Origin: Candidatus Saccharimonadales bacterium
GTDB taxonomy: Bacteria > Patescibacteriota > Saccharimonadia > Saccharimonadales > JANWIN01
Assembly (NCBI GenBank): GCA_038231155.1
Contig: JBBRLY010000016.1
Location: forward strand, 103,864 to 167,863
Length of the DNA stretch: 64,000 bases
Direction of reading: 5' to 3'
Part shown: piece by piece, positions 1 through 49,581 of the stretch
How positions within the stretch are numbered: the stretch's first letter is position 1
Layout: every line of letters begins with the position of its first letter
Translations under genes and position numbers: made by a program
Notes under the pieces: model-generated
Told to the model about the DNA's origin: nothing
Databases searched by the model: none
Seen by the model: only the letters and a program-made list of their open reading frames with translations

Positions 1-469
1 GTGTGCTAACAGAAGTGCTATCGTTTTGGACATTTACACTTACGTTTGTATTATTGCCATTTTCATCTTTAACATTCTTATTTACAGTCCCTTGTTGTGG
101 CACTGGTATATTCTGTCCATTTACAGTCACGCGAGCAGTTCCGTCGGCGTGAAGGCTTGAACTTACATTCATGGAGCCATTTACACTATTAAGACTAGAG
201 GACTCGCCAGAAACTTTTGCATTAGAATTATTATTTAAATTCGATAAATCGGGAGTCGAAGTAGGTACTATACTGTGCAGATTAGGAGCACTGGCTAGTT
301 GCCAACCCCAAACACCTAAGCTAGTGGCTAAAATCGACGATATTCCGGCTAAACTAATTTTTTTGGTTTTGCTGCTAAGACGATGTGATAAGGGTGGATT
401 AACTTGAACGATTCGCCGCAAGGCACGTATTTTTTTAGCAAAAACACTAGATTTTTCGCTCAAGTACAT
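1..469 (-). CDS. hypothetical signal-anchored surface protein, N-terminal part (ORF leaves the window at position 1)
   Basis: Manual minus-strand translation from ATG 469-467: MYLSEKSSVFAKKIRALRRIVQVNPPLSHRLSSKTKKISLAGISSILATSLGVWGWQLA... It has a basic N-terminus, one hydrophobic helix, then N/S/V-rich sequence. No stop occurs before position 1, so it is absent from the ORF track. Confidence 0.5.
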   Translation of the reverse strand, partial: MYLSEKSSVFAKKIRALRRIVQVNPPLSHRLSSKTKKISLAGISSILATSLGVWGWQLASAPNLHSIVPTSTPDLSNLNNNSNAKVSGESSSLNSVNGSMNVSSSLHADGTARVTVNGQNIPVPQQGTVNKNVKDENGNNTNVSVNVQNDSTSVST

Positions 470-715
470 ACAATAGGCCCCTACTCCCACCGTTATATCT
501 TTACTAGCAACAGTGTAACATATTTTGTTAAAAGAAAAATAAGTTTTTTTGCTGTAAAATTTGTTACAATTTTTAAGATGTAAACAAACTATTAGCAGTT
601 TAATCAAGTTTAAGTTTTAGTTAAGTTTTCCACAGCATTATTTTGCTTTTTTGGCATAATTTATGCCATCGCACCGCTTATCTGTAAGTATGTCGCTTAG
701 GCTTTAATTTCAATG

Positions 716-3670: not shown

Positions 3671-3851
3671 AAAATCTAGCGTTCCTGCCGAACGCATTGA
3701 TTATGTAGGCGATCGAGTGGAGGCTGATATTAAATCTGCAAAAGCAGTTGGTATGAAGACTTGCTTGGTTTACTCAGAATCCGAAATCACTGACTTTTCT
3801 TTTACATCATTCAGGCAAATTTTGACAATGAATGAATGTTTGATTAGTTAA
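3660..3851 (+). pseudogene. C-terminal remnant of a HAD-superfamily hydrolase
   Basis: The 63-aa ORF contains the HAD motif IV context ...IDYVGDRVEADIKSAKAVGMKTCLV... It lacks the N-terminal DxD nucleophile motif and the cap. It starts inside the 3' end of the preceding gene. Confidence 0.45.
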
Positions 3852-4048: not shown

Positions 4049-4891
4049 ATGGTTAACAACTATAAAGGAGTAGAAGACACTAAAGCATTTAGCGCCGTAG
4101 TCAATAAGCTGCGCCGTTTTTGCCTAGATAAAGATTTTTGCGAGGTAAGTACTCAAGATCGGCTCAGCATACTGGCAGCTTGCGAAGATCCTGACACAGT
4201 TGCAACCTATAACTACGCCGGGCAAGTCTGGCCGCTACCCCAAACTGGACAGATGTGGCTGGAGTACGAGCTACTGACTAAACCAGATGTCCCAGGAGTC
4301 TTCTGCGTAAGTACTAGTTATCGGAATGAACAAAATCCGGTTCCTGGGCGCCATAAACTAATTTTCCCAATGTTCGAGTTTGAAATAAAAGGCGGTATTG
4401 ACGACTTAGTTAAATTTGAAACTAAGTTACTGGAGTACCTAGGTTTCGGCGACCGGAGTAAATACCACTATAAAAAATACGATCAACTAAAACGTCACTA
4501 TAAAACTAGGGAACTTACTTACAAACATGAAAATAAGATGCTAGAAGATTTTGGGATGGTGATATTCTGCACTGAGTTCCCATCATATACCTCCCCGTTT
4601 TGGAACATGAAGAAAAAAGGAGATAACTACTCCAATAAAATAGATGTCATCATCCACGGTAGTGAAACAATCGGTAGCGCCGAACGAAGTGTAACTGTCA
4701 GTGAAATGGCCAAAGAATTCTATAGCATAAGCCAGGGTAAATACGCTAAGAAGCTATTTGACCTATTCGGTAAAGATCGAGTTGAAAAAGAACTAAGTGA
4801 GTTTCTGTCACTAAACTTCTTCCCACGCTGCGGCGGTGGAATTGGTTTAACTAGATTGATTGATGCATCGAAAAGCTTACAGCTTAGCTAG
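4049..4891 (+). CDS. standalone class II aminoacyl-tRNA-synthetase-like catalytic core (AsnRS/AspRS-type). Candidate archaeal-type asparagine synthetase A.
   Basis: 280 aa. Motif 2-like SYRNEQNPVPGRHKLIFPMFEFE and motif 3-like GGGIGLTRL. No anticodon-binding domain. Strong RBS AAAGGAGG at 4036-4043. Confidence 0.6.
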   Translation: MVNNYKGVEDTKAFSAVVNKLRRFCLDKDFCEVSTQDRLSILAACEDPDTVATYNYAGQVWPLPQTGQMWLEYELLTKPDVPGVFCVSTSYRNEQNPVPGRHKLIFPMFEFEIKGGIDDLVKFETKLLEYLGFGDRSKYHYKKYDQLKRHYKTRELTYKHENKMLEDFGMVIFCTEFPSYTSPFWNMKKKGDNYSNKIDVIIHGSETIGSAERSVTVSEMAKEFYSISQGKYAKKLFDLFGKDRVEKELSEFLSLNFFPRCGGGIGLTRLIDASKSLQLS

Positions 4892-31364: not shown

Positions 31365-32084
31365 TTAATCTATCGTAAGGTCAAAGTTAGTATAAGTTTC
31401 TGATACATCATCAAGTTCTTCTAGGGCATCCATCAGACGCATAATTTTACCGGCAGTTTCTTTATCGCTAATCTCTACAGTAGTTTTTGGAACGTAACTA
31501 AGTTCGGCTTCTAACACTTCGGTGCCAGCATCAGCTAGGGCGTTTCTAACTTTAGCCAAATCCTTAGGTTCAGTAAAAACCAGGGATTCGCCGTCCTCTT
31601 CTTCAACATCCTGCGCACCAGCATCTAAGGCAGTCATTAACAATTCATCGCCGGAAGCTTTAACTCGGATTATACCTTTATGATCAAATTGAAAAGCTAC
31701 CGCACCTTTCTCTGCTAAGTTGCCGCCATGTTTAGTAAAAGCCACACGCACATCTGGTAAAGTTCTATTTATATTATCGGTTGCACACTCTACTAATATG
31801 GCTGCACCGCCTGGGCCATAGCCTTCATACATTACTTCCTGGATTTGTTCACCAGCTAGTTTGCCACTGCCGCGGTCAACCGACCGCTGAATGTTGGCCA
31901 ACGGCATATTGGCAGACTTGGCTTTATCGACGGCTAGCCGTAGCGTAAAGTTAGTTTCTGGATCGCTTCCTCCACGGGCCGCAATAGCTATAGCATTGCC
32001 TAACTTTGTAAAAATAGCACCACGGGCGGCGTCTTTAGCACCCTTTTGCCTTTTGATAGTGCTCCATTTAGAATGTCCTGACAT
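31365..32084 (-). CDS. yebC: YebC/PmpR-family transcriptional regulator
   Basis: 239 aa. N-terminus MSGHSKWSTIKRQKGAKDAARG. Confidence 0.92.
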   Translation of the reverse strand: MSGHSKWSTIKRQKGAKDAARGAIFTKLGNAIAIAARGGSDPETNFTLRLAVDKAKSANMPLANIQRSVDRGSGKLAGEQIQEVMYEGYGPGGAAILVECATDNINRTLPDVRVAFTKHGGNLAEKGAVAFQFDHKGIIRVKASGDELLMTALDAGAQDVEEEDGESLVFTEPKDLAKVRNALADAGTEVLEAELSYVPKTTVEISDKETAGKIMRLMDALEELDDVSETYTNFDLTID

Positions 32085-33768: not shown

Positions 33769-34164
33769 TCATTTTTGATTTTTTAACTTTCTCCAACCGC
33801 CAGCTTTGTTATTGGCAATAACTTCCTTAAACAGATTTAGTAAAGCTCGTTCATTAATCACTTCATTTTGATGTATTTGTATAGATCGAGCTGTTAAGTT
33901 GCCCTGCCCTTGGTTAATAATGCCTTCTGGATCAGCTGCTATAGGATCATAAATAAAAATATTAACATGTATTTTTGCTGCCAGTAATGCACATATATTT
34001 CCATTCAGTACAAAGTATGGCCGGTCTGTACGTTTAATTGTTTCTGTAACATCTGCACCGGCGGCGTGAACTAAGTCACGAACTTTCCGGCAAATGTCTT
34101 GTTGCCAAGCAGGAAGTGAACTTATATATTTATCGACTCGTGGGTCTTTTTGATAAGAGCTCAT
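33769..34164 (-). CDS. DUF1801 (YdhG-like) domain protein
   Basis: 131 aa. The pattern VDKYISSLPAWQQDICRKVRDLV...PYFVLNGNICAL is typical of the family. Confidence 0.6.
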   Translation of the reverse strand: MSSYQKDPRVDKYISSLPAWQQDICRKVRDLVHAAGADVTETIKRTDRPYFVLNGNICALLAAKIHVNIFIYDPIAADPEGIINQGQGNLTARSIQIHQNEVINERALLNLFKEVIANNKAGGWRKLKNQK

Positions 34165-34286: not shown

Positions 34287-34607
34287 CTATCGATTAATAT
34301 TAGCGGCTATGGCGAATTGCATAAAATAAGCCTCTAGGGTTGTGTCGACATTGTCGGTGGTTATTGACTCGGCAAATTGTTCGCGGGCGTATAGCAACTC
34401 CCTCAGGCCGACACGTTTTTGGGCTGCCCAGAGCTGGGCCGTCTCATCAATCAAATCGAGCCCTCGGTAAAAAGCCGCCAGGCATCTGTCTGGTTTGCCC
34501 TCACGTTTGGCGCTTAAAGCTCGACCGACTTCTAAACCGATATTCCCCATCTGATTAAACATATCCATTTCTGCCCAGCTTGTAGTATTAAATACGTGGC
34601 TAGTCAT
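34287..34607 (-). CDS. hypothetical helical protein (GC-rich gene)
   Basis: Track ORF of 106 aa. 8-nt overlap with the upstream 113-aa ORF. Confidence 0.5.
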   Translation of the reverse strand: MTSHVFNTTSWAEMDMFNQMGNIGLEVGRALSAKREGKPDRCLAAFYRGLDLIDETAQLWAAQKRVGLRELLYAREQFAESITTDNVDTTLEAYFMQFAIAANINR

Positions 34608-34941
34608 GGACCACCTTTTGTACTAGATCTATAATTTGTTGCCGGATCTCCGGATTCAAGACGTCTTTTGAAGCATTTCCTTGGCTGGGTCGTATGTTTA
34701 TCATTGAATCGAACTCTATAAAATCATCAGTCCCGTAGTCTCCTGGATGCAAGTTAATCCCCCATAGGTCGTTCTGCCTGGAGCCATGTTCCATTAAATA
34801 CGCTTCGCCATCAGCATGCATGCCCATGTCAACAATAAAGATACTTTTTGCAATATCAACATCAACTTTTACAAGGGTGCCATACATTTTCTCGGCCATA
34901 GCCGCCAACCCACCTACACTTATTTTCTCTACAACTTTCAT
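34600..34941 (-). CDS. hypothetical protein
   Basis: Track ORF of 113 aa, first gene of a two-gene cassette. Confidence 0.55.
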   Translation of the reverse strand: MKVVEKISVGGLAAMAEKMYGTLVKVDVDIAKSIFIVDMGMHADGEAYLMEHGSRQNDLWGINLHPGDYGTDDFIEFDSMINIRPSQGNASKDVLNPEIRQQIIDLVQKVVHD

Positions 34942-35000
34942 CTAGTGTTTAAGTATAGCAAAACCAAAATATCCTGCGGATAGTCTTTTTACGCTGTTTG

Positions 35001-35010
35001 TACTTGGAGG
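35001..35010. repeat. left copy of 10-bp direct repeat TACTTGGAGG (candidate att core)
   Basis: Identical to 47628-47637, which spans the last 6 nt of tRNA-Lys (CCTCCA on the minus strand) plus 4 flanking nt. Confidence 0.45.
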
Positions 35011-35099
35011 TGCGTGTGCAGTGCTATTGCAACCAAATTACAAGATAATCCAACGATCTTTATTATGGCAATGTCGACTGATACCCAAATTTAACATGT

Positions 35100-37358
35100 T
35101 TAGTTAGTGGGGTCGATTTCAATAACTTCACCCTCAATCACGCCATCATCTTTCTTAATCTTCTCAGCCTCAACATGTCGATAAAGATACATAAATTGTT
35201 CTGCAACGAGGTATTCAAACGTTTTATCTGTATTAAAGTGGCCATCTGGATATTCTATGGCCTGATTCACCTCATCACCGAACTCTTTGGTAAGAGGACC
35301 AACGAACAACCCAGGATCAACTGCGGCAGCGATACTATCATAAGACTCTCGGCGAAAATCTGAACGTATCGGTTTTCCGGTGGTCATTTCATACCCATGA
35401 CCGACATATGCTTGCAAGAACTGTATAGCGAGTTTGGGGTCTTTCTTGAAACTTTCCTCAAGGTATTTCTGAATATCCTTGCTATCGCCCCATTTTTGCC
35501 ATATCCACATTAGGGAGGCAACATCATTGGGGTAGTCGGTTTGTACGTGATGGTTTTTAGTGTATGTCTTGATTCTTGTTGCCAGAATCTTACCAAGTTC
35601 ATGCACTTGATCCTCTGAAATCAGCGGCACAAAATCTGGTTTATCTTTATCATTCTCAGAGTTGACTCTGACCCATTGCAGCAATTGAGCAGCGTAGTTT
35701 ATCGGTGCATTACTGATGAATTTAGTAAGGGTCTCGTTGGCATTATCCACATTTTTCATGAGATGAACGGCAAGTATCGCAGACTGTACGTATGGCGACA
35801 TTGTGTCCCCGAGCAATGATTGTCTTGAACGCATGAGACTTGCTCCATTAGCAACAAGTACCTCGGCGAGAGTTTTGCTCGTCTGTTCAGGAAGTTTCTT
35901 CTCTCTTCGGCGTAACTTAGAAATGATCATGGCAACGTCAGCATCTTTGATCAGAGTCTGAAATATTTTACTGGCCTTTGCCGGTGATGTCTTCGGGTTA
36001 GTTATTGCAGCCAAGAAATCTTCAATTTTACTGTCGGCTATATCCCCGGGAGGGATCCCGTAAGAGAAGTATCGGTTAAAGTATTTATCCGTACACACCC
36101 TCTTTGCTTCTTCCCAATTCGCCTCAAAATCTCCGCCGTATGATGAGCCTCCGAGTGCCCATTCCACTGATGGGAATAATTCCTTAACAATGCTGACTTC
36201 CATCCCAGTAGGCTCGTCCTTGCCAAAGATTTTTCTACGAGTGCTTGTCTTTGCATTCTCATCTCGATCCCCATATGCACCTGATCTCAACACTACCTCT
36301 TTGCTCTTTGCCAGACGCTGATACAACTCTGGGAAGAAGATGCGTAACATATCAACCAGTGCTACATCGGTAAAACTGGCCTCATTTGATAGTCTTTCAA
36401 TAGAGAAGTCTACTGTATTGAGATACCGAACTATTCTTCGTGGCGTATTGAACAGTTTCTCAGCGTCCCTTGAGAAATAGACGGATTGGAATCTAGACAT
36501 GTCATCATCGGTAATATCGAACTTATGCCCAATGATGATTTTGTCCAACTCTTCCGTTAGGTATCTATTGAGCAGTTCCTGATCTACGTTTGGAACATAC
36601 AATGGTAGTTGTACTATTTTATCTATGAAGTTGTCTCCAACGTCGGAGTTGTTGGGATATCGCAATGCTAATGCATCTGCAACAACTTCACGATCAAATG
36701 AGAGTAGATAAGAAATATTACTAAAATGAGCGATATTCTTCACAAGTTTGAATACTTGATGAATCTCGTCGCTATCAAGCCTATCAATATCATCAATCAC
36801 TACAATCACTCGCTGGCCTGATTTAGCGAGTATCTTGTCGACTCGTTCTCTCGTTGAATCAACACTTATGACTTTATCGCTGTGAGCAACGCCAATGCGT
36901 TTTAATAACGAGCCGAGTATTTTGCCTATCAAGCCAGCGGGCGGGAAGAACGTACCTACGACATCCCCGACTGGTCCTGTAATCTCACCGTATCGTTTGA
37001 GTTCCTCAGCAACAACTTCACCGTTTGATCGTAATCTTGCTCCGAGTTTACTTGCTAATGTGCCAAAGAACGCCATATGCAGGCTTTCCGAGTTTGAGAA
37101 AACCCATGGATTGAACTTTATTACCACTGTTTTTTCGTTATATTTCTGATCAATATGCTCAACGGCCATGTTTATGACGGAGGTTTTGCCACTACCCCAC
37201 GACCCATATAGACCAACGGTAATCGATTGAGAATCTGGGACTTTTACTAGCGTTTCAGCTAGGGAGACAGAGAAATCTTTTCGGCCAAATCTATCTTCGT
37301 TAGATCGAGCAATGGGTTCATCTGGGCTTTTCTTGAATGTCTTCATTAGGCATTCCAA
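35100..37358 (-). CDS. KAP-family P-loop NTPase with a large uncharacterised C-terminal region
   Basis: 752 aa (748 if the ATG at 37346 is used). Walker A GLYGSWGSGKTS, FNPW motif, hydrophobic G/P-rich insert (ITGPVGDVVGTFFPPAGLIGKILGSLL), Walker B VIVVIDDIDRLD. Its start overlaps the hsdMS stop. Confidence 0.85.
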   Translation of the reverse strand: MECLMKTFKKSPDEPIARSNEDRFGRKDFSVSLAETLVKVPDSQSITVGLYGSWGSGKTSVINMAVEHIDQKYNEKTVVIKFNPWVFSNSESLHMAFFGTLASKLGARLRSNGEVVAEELKRYGEITGPVGDVVGTFFPPAGLIGKILGSLLKRIGVAHSDKVISVDSTRERVDKILAKSGQRVIVVIDDIDRLDSDEIHQVFKLVKNIAHFSNISYLLSFDREVVADALALRYPNNSDVGDNFIDKIVQLPLYVPNVDQELLNRYLTEELDKIIIGHKFDITDDDMSRFQSVYFSRDAEKLFNTPRRIVRYLNTVDFSIERLSNEASFTDVALVDMLRIFFPELYQRLAKSKEVVLRSGAYGDRDENAKTSTRRKIFGKDEPTGMEVSIVKELFPSVEWALGGSSYGGDFEANWEEAKRVCTDKYFNRYFSYGIPPGDIADSKIEDFLAAITNPKTSPAKASKIFQTLIKDADVAMIISKLRRREKKLPEQTSKTLAEVLVANGASLMRSRQSLLGDTMSPYVQSAILAVHLMKNVDNANETLTKFISNAPINYAAQLLQWVRVNSENDKDKPDFVPLISEDQVHELGKILATRIKTYTKNHHVQTDYPNDVASLMWIWQKWGDSKDIQKYLEESFKKDPKLAIQFLQAYVGHGYEMTTGKPIRSDFRRESYDSIAAAVDPGLFVGPLTKEFGDEVNQAIEYPDGHFNTDKTFEYLVAEQFMYLYRHVEAEKIKKDDGVIEGEVIEIDPTN

Positions 37359-39895
37359 ACCTCGGAAATATAATCTGCGATCTTTTTCTCATAAACAGAA
37401 ACCAATTTTTGGCTTCCCTTTATCAGATCATTTTCAGACTCCAGCTCATCTACTATTTGATGCTGAACGTCTAAAGATGGGAGGGGTATTTCAATATTAA
37501 GCAATTTGGGTTTTGATATATTTTTCATACTTCCACTTGTTCCGTTAGAGAGATCCGAAATCATTCTCCTATATTTCGGTGAGGAAATAACATACTGTAC
37601 GTAACGCATTGAAAGATCATTACCTTTTTTATCTGCTTGCCAAAGTCTGTCGGGCAAATAAAGTTCATTGTAGTCACTGTCAATGTATACACTCGCACCA
37701 ACTAACTCAGGGGTGTTCATTCTACTTATAATAATACTGTCTGTTTTTGGATTAATCTTTGCTCTGTGAAGTTCACTGTCAAGAATTACCTTGTTTTCTC
37801 GGGGGTTGAATGCGCCATATGATACAGCGCTTGTCTTGAGAATTCCGTGTTCGCCATCGCTCATTGGCCGGTTCATAGAATTCACACTAACACCGGCCTC
37901 GAGTTTAACGAACAGTTCATTAAGTTTAACTTTCGGCCACGATGTCTCGAATCTAATTTCCGGCTGATAAGTTTTTAGTATTATTTTTCCTGAGTCAGCA
38001 ATAACTCGATAACTATCTAAGGTTGCCACAATTTCCTTCTGCATTTCTATTGTCGGTAAAGGGATTTTATTGGCAAGAAAATAATCAACTTTGAGCCTTT
38101 TTCTATTTGATGTCCCAATGCTCGAGTCTTCACACAATTGTGTAAACTCAGCAGACTGAACGATGTAATCCAGAAATTTGGGAAAGATTCTGTCCATATT
38201 CGATTCAAAGACTGGAAAATCAGAAGTAACAATTGCCCCATCTAATTCTGATGTTACGATACCAAATGCCCCGTGGCGTGCATCAATTTTGGAAATTATA
38301 AAATCCCCTGCAAATGCAATAAATTGTCTCTTTGTTTTGATATCTTGACCTCGAATTGACTGCCGCAGGATAACACCTTTGCTAAATAATTTGACAGTTA
38401 TTTGCTTGTATTCTTTGGCATCTAACACCTCAACAGTACGGATCTGCGGAATCAGAATATCCTTCAGCTCAACCATTGGCCAACTGTTGCCTCTGGTGGA
38501 TTCAATCCTACTATCACCAATTATTTTGAGTGAGTGTACAGGATCGTTGTAGAGTGTATTCCGATCGATAATTCTGGTTTCAACTGTCAACTTACTGCCC
38601 ATCGATTCGGAATTCTTAAAACATTGAATTATGTTAAGGGCATCAGGAAGATCATTCGCATCAATTGGATTACGTAGCGAGCCCAGATCATAACCATCGC
38701 TTTTTACTTTAACAAACAGCACTTGTTTCGTCTTTGGATCAATCGTTTTGTCGAAAAAGAGAATGCTTGTCTTGGCGGTCTTAGCATATGGATTGAAGAT
38801 ACCGGTTGGAAGGCTCACAACACACCAAAGTCCGGCATCTAACAAAGATTGTCGAATCTTTCCATACGCTGCCTGATCTTTGAATAAAACGCCCTCTGGA
38901 ACAATAACGCCGCATCTACCGGCGGTACTGAGGTGCTTAGTCATATAATTCAAAAAGAGTACCTCTGTGGCACCAGTCCCCATTCGTAAATCCTCTGAGA
39001 CACTAGCTTTATCGACATTTCCAGAGAACGGTGGGTTGGCTAGGATCACATCCCACTTACCTCTATCACCTGTGGTGTCGACAAGTGTATTTTGCCGTTT
39101 GATGCTAGCGTGACTAAGATTGTGTAGATAGAGGTTCATTACGCCGAACTTCACCATATCCTCGTCGCTATCAAACCCAGTAAAAGCGTGATTGAAGATG
39201 AAGTCTCGTTCTTCGCCAGACAATTCATCCATTAAGAATGTACCGTCTTTTTTGAATCGTTCAGAGGTGTACTTGGTACGAAGGTGATTCAACGCCTCAA
39301 CGAGGAATCCGCCAGTCCCACAGGCTGGGTCTAGGATCGTCTCGCCCTTTTCTGGGTCGACCACATCCACCATGAACTTGATTACGTGGCGTGGGGTTCG
39401 GAACTGGCCGTTTGTACCGGCCTGAGCCAACTTAGAAAGTAAATACTCGTACATGTCGCCGAAAATGTCTTTGGAACCGTGCCTTGCGGCGGTATCCAGT
39501 TCAGTAACTAACTTCTCGATTTCATGTACCAATACACGTAAGGTAGGCTTGTCATATATCTTGATGTGGGCGTTGCGGTAGAGCAAAGCCACAGTTTTAT
39601 CGGTAGTCAGTTCCGGCAATTTGCGATACGCTTCCTCGAGTGTGTCGAACAAGATTTCAGCGTTGAGCATCAAAAGGTTGTCCCAACTGTATTTCATCAG
39701 TTCATCTTTGAAGATTGCATCATGATCTGGATTAAGCAATTTTGCCTCTTCATCGTGCTGAGTAAGAGCACGTAGGAACATCAAGTAATTGATCTGCTCG
39801 ATGATTGTTGCATGGCTCGCCACACCAGCCCCAAATAGCCTGTCCATGAGGTTGTCGATCTTGCGATGGAGGCCGGTAGCGTGGAATGGCTGCAT
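37346..39895 (-). CDS. hsdM: type I restriction-modification methyltransferase fused to the specificity subunit (HsdM-HsdS single polypeptide)
   Basis: 849 aa. HsdM N-domain, motif I DPACGTGGF, motif IV NPPF. Two TRD-like halves follow, each ending in the S-subunit conserved helix (KIPLPTIEMQKEIVATL and IEIPLPSLDVQHQIVDEL). Confidence 0.88.
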   Translation of the reverse strand: MQPFHATGLHRKIDNLMDRLFGAGVASHATIIEQINYLMFLRALTQHDEEAKLLNPDHDAIFKDELMKYSWDNLLMLNAEILFDTLEEAYRKLPELTTDKTVALLYRNAHIKIYDKPTLRVLVHEIEKLVTELDTAARHGSKDIFGDMYEYLLSKLAQAGTNGQFRTPRHVIKFMVDVVDPEKGETILDPACGTGGFLVEALNHLRTKYTSERFKKDGTFLMDELSGEERDFIFNHAFTGFDSDEDMVKFGVMNLYLHNLSHASIKRQNTLVDTTGDRGKWDVILANPPFSGNVDKASVSEDLRMGTGATEVLFLNYMTKHLSTAGRCGVIVPEGVLFKDQAAYGKIRQSLLDAGLWCVVSLPTGIFNPYAKTAKTSILFFDKTIDPKTKQVLFVKVKSDGYDLGSLRNPIDANDLPDALNIIQCFKNSESMGSKLTVETRIIDRNTLYNDPVHSLKIIGDSRIESTRGNSWPMVELKDILIPQIRTVEVLDAKEYKQITVKLFSKGVILRQSIRGQDIKTKRQFIAFAGDFIISKIDARHGAFGIVTSELDGAIVTSDFPVFESNMDRIFPKFLDYIVQSAEFTQLCEDSSIGTSNRKRLKVDYFLANKIPLPTIEMQKEIVATLDSYRVIADSGKIILKTYQPEIRFETSWPKVKLNELFVKLEAGVSVNSMNRPMSDGEHGILKTSAVSYGAFNPRENKVILDSELHRAKINPKTDSIIISRMNTPELVGASVYIDSDYNELYLPDRLWQADKKGNDLSMRYVQYVISSPKYRRMISDLSNGTSGSMKNISKPKLLNIEIPLPSLDVQHQIVDELESENDLIKGSQKLVSVYEKKIADYISEVWNA

Positions 39896-39897
39896 AT

Positions 39898-42273
39898 TTA
39901 GACTTTCAACAGTTTATTATTGTGAACATCTGAAACAATTTCTTCGAGTTCATCTTTGCCGAATGTATCTAGCCACTCTCGTACTGAGTAACCCTGGTTG
40001 AATGGCTCACGTTGCAAGAAACTGATGTCGGATGCCTTTTGTAGCGACTTGCGTAATCTGTCGTCTTGTACAACTTCGGTAGCAATCAAATCAACCATCA
40101 ACGCTCGTCGCTGTGTTGCGCCTGGCTTCTTGCCGTATTTATAGATCATGCCTTGTTTCCATTGCTCTAATTGCTCGTCTCGCTCAGGCAAAGACTTTTT
40201 CTTGAGTGCCGACAGCAAGAAGTCTTTTACCGTCGCAATTACTCGGTATGAACTGATCAGACTCTCTTCGTTAAAATAGTGGCTCGGTCGGTTGAGCAGT
40301 TCACTGTTGATGAGTTCGATCAATTCTTCAGTCTTATCTTCATTATCGATCATCGTTGCGACTTCGGGATGGCTCGTCACAAACTGCTGGACTGCTGACG
40401 TCCACTCGTCTTTGTACATCTCACGATCAACCTTGTCGCCGTCGGGTCCAACTTCGATAAGGTTACGTGTGCCGATCATATCGGCCTGATGAGAGACGAC
40501 CGGTTCGGTCTTAACCACTTCTTCGTTATTCGATTCGGAAGTCTGCTCAGACGATTGTATCGAGTGAGCGGCCTCTTTGTCAGCCTTGTTTCGGTCAATT
40601 GGCTTCTTGAGCGGTGCTTCCCAATCGTAATTTTCCTCAAAGTATTCACATACGCCGCAAAAATCGAACATCACGAACTGCTTCTTGTCGATTTCCTTGC
40701 ACAGGCGAGTCCCACGGCCTTTAATCTGTTGGTACAGAGTTGGCTCGAATACTGGACGAGCAAGCACAATGTTCTGCACTTCGGGAGCGTCAAAGCCGGT
40801 TGTGAGCATATCGACCGAGACGGCAATACGAGGCAGTTGGTTATCGGGGTTCTTGAAGTCTCGAGCAATCTCACTCGCACCCTGTACGCTACTGGTGATC
40901 GTTCTGGCAAATCGCCCATTATATTCGGGGTGCATTGCGTTTAGCACTTTTTCAAGCTCAAGAGCATGTCGCTGTGACACGGCAAAGACTATGGTCTTAC
41001 CAATCTCACCTCTGTTATTTCGCTCAGCGTACTCTAGGAACTCGGCCATCATCGCCTTATTACGCTCAGGCAAATAAACTTTCTTTTCAAGGTCACGAAT
41101 TTTGTAATTCTCACCCTCGACATCCTCTTCGGTCAGCACCAGGCCATCTTCGCTCAAAGCGGCTTGCGTGAGTATAGTATTCATTTTGTGAAGTTTGGGC
41201 GGAATGAGGAATTCATCTTTAACACCGTCCTGAATGGTATAGCGGAATGTGGCATTGCCGTCCTCACAACCAAAGTAACGATAGGTATCTCGCTGGATAC
41301 GGGCTTCAACAGCACGAGGATCGTTGATTTCCAACTTCTCTAAATCAAGATTCTTGAGGAAATCACGAGGTGTGGCGGTTAAACCGATCTTGGTTGCACC
41401 GACAAAGTAATCCATTGCCGCTCTCGCTTGCGGACTGTAAATACTGCGATGTGCCTCGTCATGGATAATCAGGTCGAAATAACCCGACGAAAAGATGTCT
41501 TTACCATGTAGAGCAAGCGATTGAATCGTCGCAATCACGACATTTGCCCCTGTTAAGTTCTTTCGAGACGACCCCCAATACGTGGCAACGCTTGAGAGGC
41601 CACCCAGGAGACGTTCAAACGATCCTTTAGTCTGTGATGCTAGCTCCACTCGATCCACAACAAATAGCACCGTCTGGGCTTGATGGGTACGCAGAAACTT
41701 ACTGATAATCAGGCCCGCTAGAACGGTCTTGCCTGTACCGGTTGCCATTTCGAGCAAGAAACTACGTTTGCCCTCGTCATAACGCTTTGCAATGCTCTGA
41801 TATGCCGCTATCTGGTATGGCCGAAGTTCGAGTGAGTTATCAATGTCTTTGAAGTAATCTTTTTCGACCGATTTCGTCGATAGAAGTTCGACCACTCCAA
41901 CACGTCCAACATTTCGCCTGCGCTCCAAATCTTCACGAGAGAAGAATGCCGGCACGGAAATAGCATCACCTGAAGCAATATCCCAAAAATAAACCACATG
42001 ATCGTTGGCGAGGTAGATATATTCGATCTGACCCTTGTATTGAGTCTCGGCGTAGTTCAATGCCTGTTGCTTGGCGGTATAGGGATCAATCTCAGGGGCT
42101 TTGGCTTCAATGAGTGCGATTGCTTTGCCTGAACGATCTTTGAGCACATAGTCTGCTCGACCGACGCTCCCGTGATCTTCAAACACGACTTGGCTTTGAT
42201 CTTCAATATCCCAACCAGCCTCACGTAATTTGCGATCGATGATGACTCTTGAATATGCTTCTTTTTGATTCAC
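39898..42273 (-). CDS. hsdR: type I restriction enzyme R subunit (EcoEI/type IB-like architecture)
   Basis: 791 aa. N-terminal PD-(D/E)xK (GRADYVLKD...IALIEAKAP), SF2 helicase motifs MATGTGKT, DEAH, TATP, QQIKGRGTR, acidic linker, C-terminal helical domain. GTG start. Confidence 0.9.
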   Translation of the reverse strand: MNQKEAYSRVIIDRKLREAGWDIEDQSQVVFEDHGSVGRADYVLKDRSGKAIALIEAKAPEIDPYTAKQQALNYAETQYKGQIEYIYLANDHVVYFWDIASGDAISVPAFFSREDLERRRNVGRVGVVELLSTKSVEKDYFKDIDNSLELRPYQIAAYQSIAKRYDEGKRSFLLEMATGTGKTVLAGLIISKFLRTHQAQTVLFVVDRVELASQTKGSFERLLGGLSSVATYWGSSRKNLTGANVVIATIQSLALHGKDIFSSGYFDLIIHDEAHRSIYSPQARAAMDYFVGATKIGLTATPRDFLKNLDLEKLEINDPRAVEARIQRDTYRYFGCEDGNATFRYTIQDGVKDEFLIPPKLHKMNTILTQAALSEDGLVLTEEDVEGENYKIRDLEKKVYLPERNKAMMAEFLEYAERNNRGEIGKTIVFAVSQRHALELEKVLNAMHPEYNGRFARTITSSVQGASEIARDFKNPDNQLPRIAVSVDMLTTGFDAPEVQNIVLARPVFEPTLYQQIKGRGTRLCKEIDKKQFVMFDFCGVCEYFEENYDWEAPLKKPIDRNKADKEAAHSIQSSEQTSESNNEEVVKTEPVVSHQADMIGTRNLIEVGPDGDKVDREMYKDEWTSAVQQFVTSHPEVATMIDNEDKTEELIELINSELLNRPSHYFNEESLISSYRVIATVKDFLLSALKKKSLPERDEQLEQWKQGMIYKYGKKPGATQRRALMVDLIATEVVQDDRLRKSLQKASDISFLQREPFNQGYSVREWLDTFGKDELEEIVSDVHNNKLLKV

Positions 42274-42382
42274 GTTTTATCCATGTCTAAATATAAAATT
42301 TGCTACCTCAAATCAGGTAGCCCACCCCCAGATTTTACCACGGGAAAGCACTTTGAAGTAGGAGGTTGTACAATAGAGTCAT

Positions 42383-42817
42383 ATGATAGGTCAAGCAATA
42401 ATCAATTCGCATACGTTGGATACCGCTAAAAACGGTAACGCTGTTGGCCGTCCCAAGGCGATAACCTCCGAAGTCGTCCATCAATTAATAGACTCACTTC
42501 GGCTGGGTTCTGACGTTACGGCTGCCTGTATTCTATCTGGTATCAGCACCTCGACTTATTACAACGAACTTGCGAGGAACAAGCGATTTATGGACAAAAT
42601 GACCATTGCTCAGCAAGAAACATCGCTTTATGCCAATACGCTTATTGCAAAAGCTATTAGACAAGGAGATATGAAGACGGTCAGATGGTATCTTGATCGC
42701 CAAGATCGACTTGCATACCACGCACAGCAATCGGCCAAAAATCGAAATACGAAAAAGATCATCATTACTGAGACTCATCAAAACACCCATTCTGTCAGTA
42801 TGGAAGTTGATCAGTAA
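42383..42817 (+). CDS. HTH DNA-binding protein (phage terminase-small-subunit/resolvase-HTH-like)
   Basis: 144 aa. Contains GRPKAITSEVVHQLIDSLRLGSDVTAACILSGISTSTYYN. Confidence 0.45.
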   Translation: MIGQAIINSHTLDTAKNGNAVGRPKAITSEVVHQLIDSLRLGSDVTAACILSGISTSTYYNELARNKRFMDKMTIAQQETSLYANTLIAKAIRQGDMKTVRWYLDRQDRLAYHAQQSAKNRNTKKIIITETHQNTHSVSMEVDQ

Positions 42818-42860
42818 GCACCCATTTCTCTTACGCAGTAAACGCTTTACTCAAGCCATT

Positions 42861-42890
42861 TTGAGATAGCCCACCAGAGAGTGTTATAAT
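42861..42890 (+). promoter_or_regulatory. strong sigma70-type promoter with extended -10 (TTGAGA-18 nt-TGtTATAAT)
   Basis: -35 TTGAGA at 42861-42866. TG at 42882-42883 followed by TATAAT at 42885-42890. Confidence 0.55.
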
Positions 42891-42896
42891 TTCGAT

Positions 42897-43113
42897 AACG
42901 CCATTCTTGGCGTTGGAACAATTTAGCAATGACCTAAACTCACCTCGGTGAGCATGGTTATAAATCCAGAAAAGCGTACTAAGCTCGTCGTTTAGGCATC
43001 TTTTCTGGTTGCACATCGAATGGTGTGCAGGGGTCGCAAGATCCCGCTTAGCGGCGAGCTTCGTGTGTCTCGCCGCCAGCATCAATTAGATGCCGAGTTA
43101 GGAGGCGGCGATC
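42897..43113 (+). ncRNA. candidate structured leader or ncRNA (seven consecutive hairpins) upstream of the SHOCT-domain gene
   Basis: Stems read directly from sequence: 42897-42914, 42939-42952, 42966-43008 (9 bp), 43010-43029, 43030-43045 (GCAA loop), 43051-43076 (8 bp GC-rich), 43079-43093. There is also alternative pairing with the SD-start region. Confidence 0.4.
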
Positions 43114-43686
43114 ATGGGATTACTCGACAGTATTAAAGATGGATATACCAAGAATCGGGAAGTGGCCGCTGAACGCAAAGATGTGAGGGGTGAGAAACTC
43201 GCACATGCACAATGCATTTATTTGGGTGGATATGAGGTTAAGCATAAAGCCGGTGGTAGCGTTACGTTTTTCGAGAATCAAATTGAGTTTAGTACCCTTG
43301 GTAAAGCCAAGTTTACGCTAACCAAGACGTTAGTGCGTGAAGTGGCCGTTGAGGGCAAGGACGAAGTTCATAGTCGTGTCACCGTCACACGCTTGCTCGT
43401 TCTCGGCATATTTGCTTTCGGGGCAAGGAAAAAGAACGAGGTCAAAGAATCTTATATCACGATAGTCTTGAATGATGGTCGAGAGGTTGTTTTACAGGTC
43501 AATAACATCGCCCCCGTGCAACTCAAGGCCAAATTTTCAAAGGTGTACGCTGCATACAACCAAAGCAAGCCACTGCAGCAAGGTTCAGCCACAGACGAAC
43601 TTGAGCGGCTGGCAGCACTCAAATCCAAGGGCGTAATAACCCAAGCCGAGTTTGATGCAAAGAAACGTCAACTACTGGGCTTATAG
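43114..43686 (+). CDS. protein with C-terminal SHOCT domain
   Basis: 190 aa. The C-terminus ELERLAALKSKGVITQAEFDAKKRQLLGL matches the SHOCT pattern. Good RBS AGGAGG 8 nt upstream. Confidence 0.6.
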   Translation: MGLLDSIKDGYTKNREVAAERKDVRGEKLAHAQCIYLGGYEVKHKAGGSVTFFENQIEFSTLGKAKFTLTKTLVREVAVEGKDEVHSRVTVTRLLVLGIFAFGARKKNEVKESYITIVLNDGREVVLQVNNIAPVQLKAKFSKVYAAYNQSKPLQQGSATDELERLAALKSKGVITQAEFDAKKRQLLGL

Positions 43687-43792
43687 CAATAGTTACAGCT
43701 ACAGCTTGATTCTCTGCAAATTGTTGGCCGTAGCCGTTAAACGGTAAACTGTATTTAGTACAAGTTCCTAGTTAACAGAATGAAGATGCAAA

Positions 43793-44413
43793 ATGAATAT
43801 CCGAGAATACACAGCACAAGCGGCAAAAGCACTATTAGCCAATCCTGAGTTTCAATCTGCTGTGGCTCAGACTAGAAACAACAACCACATAGCAGATTCT
43901 GCGCTTGCTGACGATGCCGCAATCGAGACTTGGTATAAGGATCGAGTTTACGGCAAGACGAATGCCGAGACGCCTCTGGATGATGCTGTGGCTGACATCA
44001 TCTTTCAATTCCAATTAAGTCCCGACTGGCGGCATAGCATCAAGCGTTACATACTGCTTAATAATCCCATGGATATGCAACTGCCGATGCACATTGAGGT
44101 AGGCGTAATAGAAGATGAACAAACCCGCCAATGGCGTGTTGTTGCCTACATACCCGAATACGCTTCCCAGCGAGATATTAAGGCGGCGTTGCCAGAAATA
44201 ACCAAGTGGCAAGAGAAAATACGAGCCAAGTCACTCAAGCGGCAGCCGGTATTTACCAATGAACTTGCCAAAGAAGCCTACGCTATATATCAGCGTGTAA
44301 GGAGTTATCAGAAAACGGCCACTGAACTCGGCGAAAAGTCACAGAGGAAGATTAGCCAAGAACAAGCCAGAGATTTAATCCGCAACTACAAAAAGCGGGT
44401 TGGTATCAATTGA
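43793..44413 (+). CDS. hypothetical island protein
   Basis: Track ORF of 206 aa. No motif recognised. Confidence 0.5.
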   Translation: MNIREYTAQAAKALLANPEFQSAVAQTRNNNHIADSALADDAAIETWYKDRVYGKTNAETPLDDAVADIIFQFQLSPDWRHSIKRYILLNNPMDMQLPMHIEVGVIEDEQTRQWRVVAYIPEYASQRDIKAALPEITKWQEKIRAKSLKRQPVFTNELAKEAYAIYQRVRSYQKTATELGEKSQRKISQEQARDLIRNYKKRVGIN

Positions 44414-45856: not shown

Positions 45857-45948
45857 GTTGACCCAGTTATGTTCCAAGAAGCTTTTTTATGCTCTTCTGC
45901 CTGTTCTGGGGCGGTTCAGCCAGAAGCCTTCTTGGTGACTGGGTCAAC
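45857..45948. repeat. 92-nt imperfect palindrome between the cargo module and the recombinase gene
   Basis: Perfect 11-bp arms GTTGACCCAGT (45857-45867) and ACTGGGTCAAC (45938-45948). Inner 8-bp arms CCAAGAAG (45874-45881) and CTTCTTGG (45928-45935). Confidence 0.6.
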
Positions 45949-45987
45949 CTGAACCGTCCCTTTTGGGACTCTAAGGAGGGCATAAAA

Positions 45988-47673
45988 ATGAAAAATAGCA
46001 AAGGTTTGCGTTATATCGCTTACGTTCGTAAATCATCTGAAGATAAAGAGAAGCAGGAACTTTCTCATATCAGTCAGATTGAGAATATTAAAGACAAGTT
46101 CGGCCACCTCAACATAGTTAAGTGGATGGAACCAGAAAGCCGTTCGGCCTTTACGCCTGGTCGACCAATCTTTAATGAAATGATGGCAATGATTGAAAAG
46201 GGTGAGGCAGACGCTATTGTTGCGTGGCACCCGAACCGTTTATCTCGAAATGAAATTGATAGTGGTGAACTCACCTATTTATTACGAAGTAAATTGAAAG
46301 ATTTACAGTTTTGCTCTTATAAGTTTGATAACAACCCCGAAGGTATCATGATGTTGCAAATTGTCATGAATCAGGGGCAATACCAGTCATCCAAACAAGG
46401 TGTTGATGTAAAGCGTGGCATGGAAACAAAGGCTGATACCGGTGAAAAGCCAGGTCGTGTCATGCCAGGGTATATGAAGCAAACTGTCTTGGACGAGTAC
46501 GGCCAGCCGGTTATTCATGGCAAGAAGATAATCACAATGACAGTCAAAGATCCCGAACGTTACGATACGGTCAAACAAATGTGGAAGTGGTATTTGTACG
46601 AGCGGCAGTCGCCTCAACAAATATGGAAAAGGGTCAACGAGGAATTACATTATAAGACCGTTCCATACAAGAACAGAAAAGACGGCAGTATTAAGGGTGG
46701 CGAACCAATGAACAAAAGTATGGTTTACCGAATATTTCAGAATCCGTTTTATGCCGGCCAATACCTCCATAACGGCGTCCTTCGCAAGGGCAACTACCAA
46801 GACATCAAAATGATCACTTGGGACGAGTATAAGTTGGCACAGGAACTATTGGGTGCAAGAGCGAACCAACGTGTCGGCACGTTTGAATATGCCTTTGCCA
46901 GCATGATCAAATGTGGTGTCTGTGATTGCCAAATACAAGCTCGCCACCGTACCAAGTTCGTTAAGAGCGAGAATAAATTCAAGACGTATGTGTACTATTA
47001 CTGTTCACGCAAAAGCGAAAAACGACCATGCAATCAAAACGATTACACATTGGTTGAGGACGTTGAGCGTGACATTGATATGGAGTTACGCAAATACACC
47101 ATCATTCCCGAATTCAAAGACATGGCATTAAAACTGTTGAGCCGCAATCACAAGATTGAGGCCAGTGAGCGTACAAGTATTTATGACAAACTGCAAAAGC
47201 AACGCAAGACCATGCAGAGTGAACTTGATAGCCTTATCGGCTACCTGCATCGTGAGTTGATAGATGAAGACGACTACAAGCGTCAACGCAACTTACTCAA
47301 GGTTGAGCTGAACAGTATTGATGAACAACTACGCAATACCGAGAGACGTGCCGAGAATAATATGGAACTCAATGAGAAAGCATTCAACTTCGCCGTATAT
47401 GCCCGATCACACTTTGAGAATGGTGACGTCCGAACCAAGAGAGATACGTTGCGGACATTGGGCCAAAGCCTGATACTCAAAGACAATACGCTGTACATCG
47501 AGCCAAACGAATGGTTGGTGCCGATTTGCAATGCTTACCCTGAACTTGAGAAACGCTACATCTGGGCTCGAACCAACAAAAAAGCCACCCTACAGATGAA
47601 AGAGGCGGCTTTAATGGAAATTATGAATACTTGGAGGGCCCACTGGGACTCGAACCCAGGACACCCTGCTTAA
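45988..47673 (+). CDS. large serine recombinase (integrase)
   Basis: 561 aa from the ATG at 45988 (RBS AAGGAGGG). Resolvase catalytic domain YVRKSS...NRLSRN, recombinase domain, zinc ribbon CGVCDC...YYCSRK...C, C-terminal coiled coil. The last 14 codons are antisense to tRNA-Lys. Confidence 0.9.
   Translation: MKNSKGLRYIAYVRKSSEDKEKQELSHISQIENIKDKFGHLNIVKWMEPESRSAFTPGRPIFNEMMAMIEKGEADAIVAWHPNRLSRNEIDSGELTYLLRSKLKDLQFCSYKFDNNPEGIMMLQIVMNQGQYQSSKQGVDVKRGMETKADTGEKPGRVMPGYMKQTVLDEYGQPVIHGKKIITMTVKDPERYDTVKQMWKWYLYERQSPQQIWKRVNEELHYKTVPYKNRKDGSIKGGEPMNKSMVYRIFQNPFYAGQYLHNGVLRKGNYQDIKMITWDEYKLAQELLGARANQRVGTFEYAFASMIKCGVCDCQIQARHRTKFVKSENKFKTYVYYYCSRKSEKRPCNQNDYTLVEDVERDIDMELRKYTIIPEFKDMALKLLSRNHKIEASERTSIYDKLQKQRKTMQSELDSLIGYLHRELIDEDDYKRQRNLLKVELNSIDEQLRNTERRAENNMELNEKAFNFAVYARSHFENGDVRTKRDTLRTLGQSLILKDNTLYIEPNEWLVPICNAYPELEKRYIWARTNKKATLQMKEAALMEIMNTWRAHWDSNPGHPA
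47628..47637. repeat. right copy of 10-bp direct repeat TACTTGGAGG (candidate att core)
   Basis: Overlaps the 3' terminal CCTCCA of tRNA-Lys. Identical to 35001-35010. Confidence 0.45.
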
Positions 47674-47708
47674 AAGGCAGGTGCTCTAACCGGCTGAGCT
47701 ATGGGCCC
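47632..47708 (-). tRNA. tRNA-Lys(TTT)
   Basis: 77 nt. Acceptor GGGCCCA/TGGGCCC, anticodon stem CCTGC/GCAGG, loop CT-TTT-AA, T arm CTGGG-TTCGAGT-CCCAG, encoded CCA. Confidence 0.9.
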
Positions 47709-48678: not shown

Positions 48679-49581
48679 TTAGGCGCCTACGCGGTCTCGA
48701 CGTCTTTGTTTGGAAGCATTTTGCTCAATGTAATCGATGATTTTTTCAGCAACGTTGTGATCAGTAATGCTTTCAATGCCAAAACCGGGACTAGCATTAA
48801 CTTCTAGCACTAATGGTCCCCGATTAGACCGTACCATATCTACACCACAGATAGATAAGCCCATAGCTCGAGCAGCTTTTTGGGCCGTCTTACGTTCCTC
48901 ATCGGTTAACTTAATCGGTGTACCTTGACCACCTTGATGTAAATTAGATCGAAAATCGTCATCCAAACTTTGACGTAGCATGCTGGCTACAACTTTGCCA
49001 CCGACAACCAGTGCCCGAATATCGGTACCGGCAGATTCAGCAATAAATTCTTGCACTAAAAAACTCACACCTTCGACATAAAAAGCCTGCATTACTGCTT
49101 GAGCAGCTTTACGCGTTTCTGCAAGCACAACTCCACTTCCATGAGTACCACGAGCGACCTTAATAATTAAAGGTACCCCACCGGCTTGTTCAATAACGTC
49201 CTCTACATCAGCAGTCTCTCGAGCAAATACGGTTTTAGGAATTCCAACTCCTGACCTAGCTAGTATTTGTATGCTACGCAGTTTGTCACGCGTACGGACT
49301 AAGGCGATTGAACTGGTAGTTGTAAAAACACCTTGGACTTCAAACTGCCTGACAATTGAGCTGCCATACTTGGTTAAACTGGATGAGATCCGCGGTATAA
49401 TTACGTCAATATCGTTTAAATCTTCACCTTCGTAATGGACTACCGGATGACTCTGTTCAATGGTCACATAACATTTGGCATAGTTAATTACTCGGACTAC
49501 GTGCCCGTGCTTTTCAGCTTCCTCTTTTAGACGCTTGGTTGAGTAGTTACCAGAGCCCTGAGATAATATGGCTATTTTCAT
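48679..49581 (-). CDS. rimK: RimK-family ATP-grasp ligase (alpha-L-glutamate ligase)
   Basis: 300 aa. MKIAILS..., PLIIKVARGTHGSGV, VQEFI, DIRALVVGGKV, GVDMV...PLVLEVNASPG. Confidence 0.9.
   Translation of the reverse strand: MKIAILSQGSGNYSTKRLKEEAEKHGHVVRVINYAKCYVTIEQSHPVVHYEGEDLNDIDVIIPRISSSLTKYGSSIVRQFEVQGVFTTTSSIALVRTRDKLRSIQILARSGVGIPKTVFARETADVEDVIEQAGGVPLIIKVARGTHGSGVVLAETRKAAQAVMQAFYVEGVSFLVQEFIAESAGTDIRALVVGGKVVASMLRQSLDDDFRSNLHQGGQGTPIKLTDEERKTAQKAARAMGLSICGVDMVRSNRGPLVLEVNASPGFGIESITDHNVAEKIIDYIEQNASKQRRRDRVGA

Follow-up and report, generated by a model that had tools for sequence, protein, structure and literature searches.

A LOOT RNA copy in the leader of a SHOCT-domain gene of a Saccharimonadales mobile element and a possible relay of alternative pairings towards its ribosome-binding site

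The 64,000-nt stretch of DNA analysed here in its full length (the window; Candidatus Saccharimonadales bacterium, contig JBBRLY010000016.1, positions 103,864 to 167,863) contains a 296-nt gap between the stop codon of a 144-aa open reading frame (ORF) at 42817 and the ATG of a 190-aa ORF at 43114, as was evident from the sequence and the ORF list and as an earlier account of the locus (the preliminary description) had stated. The gap, rich in hairpins, holds a copy of LOOT RNA, a family of structured RNAs that is known from bacteria and has no assigned function. The promoter scan recovered the near-consensus extended -10 promoter that had been described at 42861-42890; the site scored 11/12 with an upstream TG, was the sole such site within 42300-43800, and leads to a predicted transcription start near 42897. 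The same interval (42300-43800) was scanned for terminator-like sites and none was detected. The features of the leader and of the gene behind it, including the segments X, Z, Z' and Z'' on which the analysis centred, are as follows (SD, Shine-Dalgarno sequence).

42861-42890, + strand: predicted sigma-70-type promoter; -35 box TTGAGA at 42861-42866, 18-nt spacer, extended -10 box TGtTATAAT at 42882-42890
42897-42914, + strand: 5'-terminal hairpin AACGCC/GGCGTT (AACGCCA-UUCU-UGGCGUU), between the predicted start and the 5' motif
42918-42930, + strand: conserved 5' motif ACAAUUUAGCAAU (consensus ACAAYUKAAU), just 5' of P1
42931-43045, + strand: LOOT core, P1 to P4, with all six helices present
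P1, within the core: outer stem GACC/GGUU, internal loop CCUAAAC/GCAUGG and inner stem CUCAC/GUGAG (CTCAC/GTGAG, 42939-42952, + strand); in the window GACCUAAAC...GCAUGGUUAUAAAUCC
J1/2, within the core: AUAAAU, an AAA-containing linker after P1
42966-42974 with 43000-43008, + strand: P2 basal stem, 9 bp, CCAGAAAAG/CTTTTCTGG (hairpin 42966-43008)
42975-42999, + strand: X, the apical part of P2, CGUACUAAGCUCGUCGUUUAGGCAU; forms a weak local hairpin CUAAGC/GUUUAG (Rfam structure) or pairs with Z
43010-43029, + strand: P3, TGCACA/TGTGCA, in reality 8 bp (TGCACATC/GGTGTGCA) with the loop GAAU
43030-43045, + strand: P4, GGGGTC-GCAA-GATCCC, 6 bp with the GNRA loop GCAA
43046-43068, + strand: Z, the 3' tail, GCUUAGCGGCGAGCUUCGUGUGU; complements X with G-U wobbles, and its centre GCGGCGAG complements Z'
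43069-43077, + strand: Z', CUCGCCGCC; pairs with Z (the 8-bp Z:Z' hairpin GCGGCGAG/CTCGCCGC, 43051-43076) or with Z'' beside the SD
43079-43093, + strand: lineage-specific hairpin GCATC/GATGC (GCAUC-AAUUA-GAUGC), enclosed by Z':Z''
43100-43116, + strand: start region of the SHOCT gene; SD AGGAGG at 43100-43105, Z'' GGCGGCGA at 43104-43111, ATG at 43114-43116
43114-43686, + strand: SHOCT gene, 190 aa, with a C-terminal SHOCT domain (Pfam SHOCT, 2.5e-9)

The search with cmscan against Rfam 15 returned LOOT RNA (RF03000) at 42931-43045 on the + strand with a score of 72.1 bits (E = 4.2e-13) over positions 1-121 of the 121-position model. The gathering score of the family is 46.4 bits, and a scan of the whole window at gathering thresholds gave the same LOOT match. 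LOOT comes from the comparative-genomics work of Weinberg et al. (2017, PMC5737381), although the main text of that paper does not discuss it, and a methods paper (PMC7657543) gives it about 43 base pairs in six helices. Our literature search for a LOOT function returned no paper assigning one, and solely the methods paper, which mentions the helices. All seven stem-loops of the preliminary description were present where it had placed them, and the Rfam scan that it had proposed identified four of them (P1 inner stem, P2 basal stem, P3 and P4) as parts of LOOT. Its hairpins, promoter and alternative pairing stood, but it had overlooked three things: P1 has an outer stem and a conserved internal loop, 42975-42999 can pair over a long range with 43046-43068, and the structure belongs to a known RNA family. 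The window copy shares with Rfam LOOT the full model, the six helices, the CCUAAAC/GCAUGG loop, the AAA-rich J1/2 and the GNRA loop of P4. It carries the family order P2, P3, P4 (GNRA) with a single deviation in the P3 loop (43018-43021), which reads GAAU in the window and GAAA in the related locus L296 and in 47 of 48 aligned copies. The window copy further differs from the Rfam family in its extra 5' hairpin (42897-42914). This hairpin was found in the minimum free energy (MFE) structure and in all constrained folds, lies outside the family consensus and is locus-specific (a few other loci have unrelated hairpins there); it might serve to stabilise the 5' end. The hairpin at 43079-43093 was likewise part of the MFE structure and was identical in L296. 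The region 42895-43120 as a whole had an MFE of -94 kcal/mol, compared with -67.5 +/- 4.9 kcal/mol for 200 dinucleotide-shuffled sequences (z = -5.4, 0/200), so that the comparison with shuffled controls, also proposed earlier, came out in favour of a structured RNA.

Relatives were collected by pattern scans of three collections (viral contigs, GTDB genomes and metagenome contigs). Because the first DNA pattern gave many false matches (only 1 of 18 proteobacterial and other loci was LOOT according to Rfam), the matches were filtered on the P1 stem, which resulted in at least 47 clear LOOT copies from viral contigs and GTDB genomes (the diverse set). These copies derived mostly from metagenome-assembled genomes (MAGs) of Patescibacteria, with one gammaproteobacterial MAG, as well as from IMG/VR contigs. 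A pattern that included part of P2 yielded 80 unique copies from metagenome contigs (the metagenomic set). The diverse set was used to build R1, a 150-position covariance model in which X and Z were left unpaired; 102 copies were aligned with it, and the window scored 114.5 bits. Among the matches listed for GTDB genomes, most true copies were located in MAGs of Patescibacteria (candidate phyla radiation), e.g., Saccharibacteria, Levybacteria and Gottesmanbacteria. One small MAG contig (L054) carried two convergent full LOOT copies, at 3618-3794 (+) and 4236-4412 (-), approximately 440 nt apart, together with a weak third match of 26.7 bits at 401-519 (+).

The core helices were strongly conserved as pairings. 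In the 102-copy alignment, the paired fraction reached 92-96% for P1, 99.3% for the P2 basal stem, 97.8% for P3 and 99.2% for P4, with compensatory changes in all of them. Eight of the nine P2 basal pairs covaried; this stem used all four Watson-Crick pair types with almost no wobbles and, counted from an invariant C-G anchor, comprised 9-13 contiguous pairs in each of 48 copies. About 25-30 unpaired nucleotides were invariant across the LOOT alignment, and the P1 loop CCUAAAC/GCAUGG as well as the AAA linker positions did not vary in any of the 48 aligned copies. The 11-nt receptor of GAAA tetraloops has the sequence CCUAAG...UAUGG, from which the P1 loop differs solely by an A and a C in place of the closing G-U. 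The loop may be a receptor of the 11-nt type into which the GAAA loop of P3 docks, which would give the RNA a compact, sensor-like core; the likeness is one of sequence only, and P3 of the window carries GAAU.

The Rfam model begins at P1 and ends at P4 (position 121 corresponds to 43045). It leaves out the Z tail, the X:Z pairing, the Z' competitor and the 5' motif ACAAYUKAAU, which suggests that the model is cut off at both ends. A tail was present after P4 in every relative (e.g., CUGGCGGCGAGCUUUGUGU), and it was complementary to the apical part of P2 with G-U wobbles. In a MAFFT alignment of 48 copies that took no account of structure, X:Z comprised 20 pairs, of which 17 had changed on both sides, and was paired in 78% of cases; on the same alignment the whole-structure covariation was 0.539, in comparison to 0.222 for shuffled data (0/500), and slid controls did not exceed 0.17. 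In the 102 copies aligned with the X:Z-blind model, the 15-pair core of the helix was 91.1% paired, and all 15 pairs had changed on both sides. A permutation control that compared own with foreign X:Z partners gave z = -16.6. Together with P1-P4 and the P2 basal stem, X:Z thus covaried in the relatives, which was the comparison that the preliminary description had asked for. The G-U pairs of X:Z were conserved as well, e.g., U-G at one position in 89 of 102 copies, and the structured strand is for this reason the + strand. A U-rich stretch after Z also paired with the 5' half of X in relatives. X occupies essentially all of the P2 loop, with linkers of 0-5 nt, and because X fills the loop in this way the full X:Z helix (about 20 bp) and the closed P2 basal stem should, on geometric grounds, exclude each other. 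Since both helices have been selected, the RNA probably switches between them. The 5' motif was found 8-20 nt before P1 in about 42 of 48 loci, between the predicted start and P1. Permutation tests revealed no pairing partner for it in X, Z, the ribosome-binding site (RBS) region, J1/2 or the 3' strand of P2; it could be a protein site, a signal of the initial transcribed region or a tertiary element.

The segment Z' extends these pairings towards the start codon. The complementarity noticed earlier between TCGCCGCC (43070-43077) and GGCGGCGA (43104-43111), which lies between AGGAGG (43100-43105) and the ATG, was confirmed. The duplex of Z' with the RBS region of the window had an energy of -17.0 kcal/mol (p = 0.027 against shuffled sequences and 0.043 against the RBS regions of other loci), and in the window ensemble the pairing probability was 0.95 for Z'' and 0.5 for the SD. 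The core GCGGCGA occurred in three copies within 63 nt and elsewhere in the window at chance level. Because Z' meets different registers of Z in different lineages, the Z:Z' pairing was assessed by per-locus shuffles and not by pair counts in an alignment. A complement of Z directly 3' of Z was detected at p <= 0.05 in 24 of 46 diverse loci (15 of them at p <= 0.01), where about two were expected, and also in 66 of the 80 metagenomic loci. Z' covaried with Z, as exemplified by the pairs CCUGGUGG/CCACCAGG, GGCGGGGAG/UUUCCCGCC and GCUGGCUAGG/CCUGGCCAG. Complementarity between Z' and the RBS/start region at p <= 0.05 was observed in 6 of 23 loci (permutation p = 0.0016) and in 11 of 60 metagenomic loci (permutation p = 0.007). 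Parallels to the window were provided by L056, L155, L126 and L177/L235, in which Z' fits GGAGG or AUGGCGG; L056 and L155 have GGAGG-type SDs, and L177/L235 have AUGGCGGGAAAA.

Three states of the window RNA were computed to lie within 1 kcal/mol of one another, namely P2 with Z:Z' and a free SD (-93.9 kcal/mol), X:Z with Z':Z'' (-94.7 kcal/mol) and P2 with Z':Z'' (-94.9 kcal/mol). When MFE structures were predicted for growing transcripts, P2 was present in all 46 cores, in 19 of 46 after the addition of Z and in 36 of 46 after the addition of Z'. The addition of Z displaced the P2 basal stem in the predicted folds of the window and of 27 of the 46 loci, and the addition of Z' brought P2 back into the MFE structure in 22 of the 24 loci with a significant Z'. 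The mutually exclusive SD switch that had been proposed for the locus therefore holds in part: the complementarity is real, Z:Z' recurs and Z':RBS complementarity is enriched, but a two-state scheme is incomplete, as the conserved driver is X pairing with the same tail.

The position of LOOT fits that of a leader. The first long ORF on the same strand started 152-200 nt from P1 in most of the 80 metagenomic loci, the diverse set being similar; a same-strand ORF followed within tens of nucleotides in nearly all loci, at a median distance of about 20 nt after Z'. A promoter-like site with a score of at least 9 was located within 70 nt upstream in 73% of 99 loci, in comparison to 17-20% in shuffled and opposite-strand controls, and the -10 box ended 15-29 nt before P1 in most of the promoter-bearing loci. 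The 97 directly downstream proteins were mutually unrelated, and no Pfam family was represented in more than four of them; they included DUF4352 proteins, zinc ribbons, DNA methylases, Mrr-type and DUF2726 nucleases, small membrane proteins and SHOCT proteins. The closest SHOCT homologue, encoded at L296, was 69% identical to that of the window. When L296 (1-245) was compared with the window (42939-43180), the leader was 98% identical up to the ATG and the identity dropped exactly at the start codon, which indicates either a strong constraint on the leader or a recent exchange of the LOOT cassette. Two sister elements, L300 (745-2267) and L297 (91-1539), shared the SHOCT gene and lacked LOOT. 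L300 also shared DUF5659 and a recombinase 54% identical to that of the window, and in both elements the SHOCT gene was placed behind an extra ORF of 166-184 aa and a divergent Xre-type helix-turn-helix gene (repressor) at the head of the operon. Being present in the window and L296 and absent from L297 and L300, LOOT behaves as a portable promoter-plus-leader cassette.

The LOOT family reportedly occurs in phage and mobile-element contexts across phyla. A large serine recombinase was detected within the fetched flank of 58 of 127 LOOT loci and was divergent from LOOT in 28 of these 58; in LOOT loci a tRNA gene usually abuts or overlaps the 3' end of the recombinase gene. The context of the window copy is mobile as well, with a terS-like gene, a Rep-like gene and a serine integrase beside tRNA-Lys. 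The SHOCT gene opens a same-strand run that closes with the large serine recombinase, its downstream neighbours being DUF5659, a Rep O-like/DnaD-like gene and the serine integrase. The other genes of the island and its flanks are as follows.

31365-32084: YebC, flanking housekeeping gene
33769-34164: DUF1801 gene, left part of the island
34600-34941: DUF5674 gene, left part of the island
35100-37358, - strand: KAP-family NTPase, left part of the island
37346-39895, - strand: fused HsdM/S (type I restriction-modification), left part of the island
39898-42273, - strand: HsdR (type I restriction-modification), left part of the island
42383-42817: small-terminase-like (terS-like) gene of the window element
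45889-47673, + strand: large serine recombinase (integrase), 3' end overlapping tRNA-Lys
47632-47708, - strand: tRNA-Lys, beside the serine recombinase
48679-49581: RimK, flanking housekeeping gene

The genes listed for the left part of the island (34287-42273, - strand) are probable defence cargo. The flanking proteins YebC and RimK each formed a 90%-identity cluster of their own in a collection of 15 billion proteins, which points to an otherwise unsampled host species, with a G+C content of about 40%. Over its final 42 nt, the recombinase ORF runs across the 3' half of tRNA-Lys on the opposite strand, and the C-terminal peptide WDSNPGHPA is coded by the complement of the tRNA T-arm; the recombinase of another locus, L063, too ends in a peptide resembling a tRNA complement. 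No 14-mer from the tRNA region recurred so as to delimit the island on its other side, and no long direct repeat was found there; this fits serine recombinases because their core identities are only short. The blastn comparison of 42383-43700 with a phage collection gave no match, and in a viral search with the SHOCT protein the matches were confined to the SHOCT domain.

Taken together, these data lead us to propose, with moderate confidence, that LOOT is a cis-acting leader in which a four-segment relay (X, Z, Z' and the RBS) sets the translation of the cargo gene. In one transcription unit, the sigma-70 promoter would start the RNA near 42897, and the transcript would present in order the lineage-specific 5' hairpin, the conserved 5' motif, the LOOT core and a 3' extension that reaches into the RBS of the SHOCT gene. 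The relay would consist of X, Z, Z' (CUCGCCGCC) and the start region (GGCGGCGA), each segment pairing solely with its neighbours in this list. With P2 closed, X would be unavailable, Z:Z' could form and the start region would stay free; with Z invading P2, X:Z would form and release Z', which would then be able to mask the spacer between SD and AUG together with part of the SD. In view of these two relay states, LOOT most likely sets the translation of the first cargo gene in cis, and the operon behind that gene may be affected too. The X/Z/Z' switch would thus control translation, and its bias might come from a ligand, a protein or co-transcriptional kinetics. Among the roles offered in the preliminary description, that of a translational riboregulator was the best supported, given the recurrence of Z:Z', the Z':RBS enrichment, the ORF closely downstream and the near-equal states.

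Several observations weigh against the proposed relay. Rfam labels LOOT as a small RNA (sRNA) gene. A clear Z' was wanting in about half of the diverse set, and Z':RBS complementarity was significant in just about 20-25% of loci; because it was confined to this minority, occlusion of the SD or start codon cannot be the universal output. For Z':Z'', L296 offers conservation alone with no compensatory changes, and the metagenomic pattern fixes part of X, so that this set adds little independent covariation for that part. The energy gaps between the computed states are within the error of the nearest-neighbour model, in which pseudoknots and tertiary contacts are ignored. The mutual exclusion of X:Z and P2 is derived from geometry, and a partial pseudoknot could coexist with P2. 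Finally, GAAU in place of the family GAAA makes the tetraloop-receptor case weaker for the window copy.

The relay resembles attenuators and expression platforms that sequester the SD, such as the ermC leader with its segments 1:2, 2:3 and 3:4. Like the ermC-type attenuators, LOOT has four consecutive segments with mutually exclusive neighbour pairings, the last of which covers the SD/AUG, and the window states are near-isoenergetic. In contrast to them, LOOT lacks a leader peptide, its first segment would be masked by the closure of a structured domain and not by a stalled ribosome, and RBS occlusion is detectable in a minority of its members. The conserved core, the competition among X, Z and Z' and the ORF directly downstream are also reminiscent of riboswitches, whereas the downstream genes of LOOT share no function, which is atypical for metabolite riboswitches. 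An RNA thermometer, which had been suggested earlier, was rejected: no Rfam match to thermometer families (ROSE, fourU etc.) was found, and the occlusion helix is an 8-bp G+C-rich stem, unlike one that melts in the physiological range.

A possible, considerably more tentative, elaboration would see in LOOT an orphan leader of the sensor type, either a riboswitch or a protein-responsive element, whose functional unit is about 30 nt longer on the 3' side than published and which serves as a portable promoter-plus-switch cassette of tRNA-integrating large-serine-recombinase elements. The P1-P4 core, maybe held by the GAAA/receptor contact, would decide whether Z enters P2 or forms Z:Z', and this choice would gate captured cargo, e.g., restriction-modification enzymes, nucleases and small membrane proteins, in a cassette common to Patescibacteria, Proteobacteria and predicted phages. 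To our knowledge, the 3' tail with its competition against P2, the Z' segment, the 5' motif, the fixed leader position before variable cargo and the link to tRNA-integrating serine-recombinase elements go beyond the Rfam model.

The strongest rival, which we nevertheless regard as unlikely, holds that LOOT yields a stable RNA, by processing of the leader or by termination of its own, and that this RNA, like the c4/CI immunity RNAs of phages P1 and P4, works either in trans or on its nascent transcript, with X as the antisense and Z and Z'' as the targets. The C4 antisense RNAs (P1/P7 c4, P4 CI; RF01695) are processed stable RNAs of about 77 nt. LOOT resembles them in being a promoter-proximal structured leader RNA of a mobile-element operon with a loop that complements downstream sites, one of which overlaps an RBS: X complements two downstream GCGGCGA sites, one of them beside the SD. 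The sRNA type assigned by Rfam, and the strong promoter of its own, would suit such an RNA, as it would suit the stand-alone non-coding RNA considered in the preliminary description, a possible but less well supported role. LOOT also opens the same-strand run that closes with the Rep-like and integrase genes, Z'' overlaps the RBS of the first gene, and the Xre-type repressor at the homologous operon head in the LOOT-less sister elements suggests that LOOT occupies a regulatory slot. On the other hand, the fold of LOOT is different and larger, its complementary tail is adjacent in cis (with only some 50 nt between Z and X in every locus), and no obvious processing site was found. An intrinsically terminated sRNA was rejected in view of the missing terminator-like site, and even at E <= 10 no C4 (RF01695) match was obtained in 42000-44000. 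Further Z-like sites in the window and the element were at chance level, the conserved Z' decoy is easier to explain with a relay in cis, and LOOT cannot head a recombinase operon in those 28 of 58 loci in which the recombinase is divergent.

Less probable still is a constitutive, nuclease-resistant 5' module with a promoter that stabilises or insulates cargo mRNAs, its alternative pairings being ordered steps of co-transcriptional folding. The unrelated downstream genes argue against a gene-specific signal and so fit this explanation, as do the apparent portability of the module (in front of the SHOCT gene in the window and L296, absent from the sister elements), the break in leader and coding-sequence identity exactly at the ATG, and the toggling of the predicted folds from P2 to X:Z and then to P2 with Z:Z' as the transcript grows. 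It is hard to reconcile with the strong covariation of X:Z, a helix lost in the final predicted fold and difficult to account for if it has no function; the Z':RBS enrichment points to an output in translation, and the invariant unpaired nucleotides suggest specific binding or a tertiary function.

A DNA-level feature (a single-strand replication origin, as once suggested, or a recombination site) or the minus-strand 84-aa ORF is largely refuted and very improbable. It would fit that both strands fold better than shuffled sequences, that the P2 basal stem is almost purely Watson-Crick and that the element has genes for a replication initiator and a serine recombinase. Against it, the conserved G-U pairs exist on the + strand only, the fold of the + strand is 14 kcal/mol more stable than that of the minus strand (-79.7 kcal/mol), GNRA loops and a receptor-like loop are RNA motifs, the conserved promoter points the same way as LOOT and the ORF behind it, and the 84-aa ORF, whose reality as a protein would have counted against the RNA, was rejected as not conserved, with no Pfam match and with all three antisense frames closed in 71 of 101 homologues.

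LOOT is a widespread structured RNA that has had no assigned function since its description in 2017, and the four-segment relay provides a concrete and testable hypothesis for it. If true, the relay would explain how newly captured cargo, including defence genes, is expressed across very distant hosts, and LOOT would represent a natural modular RNA switch.

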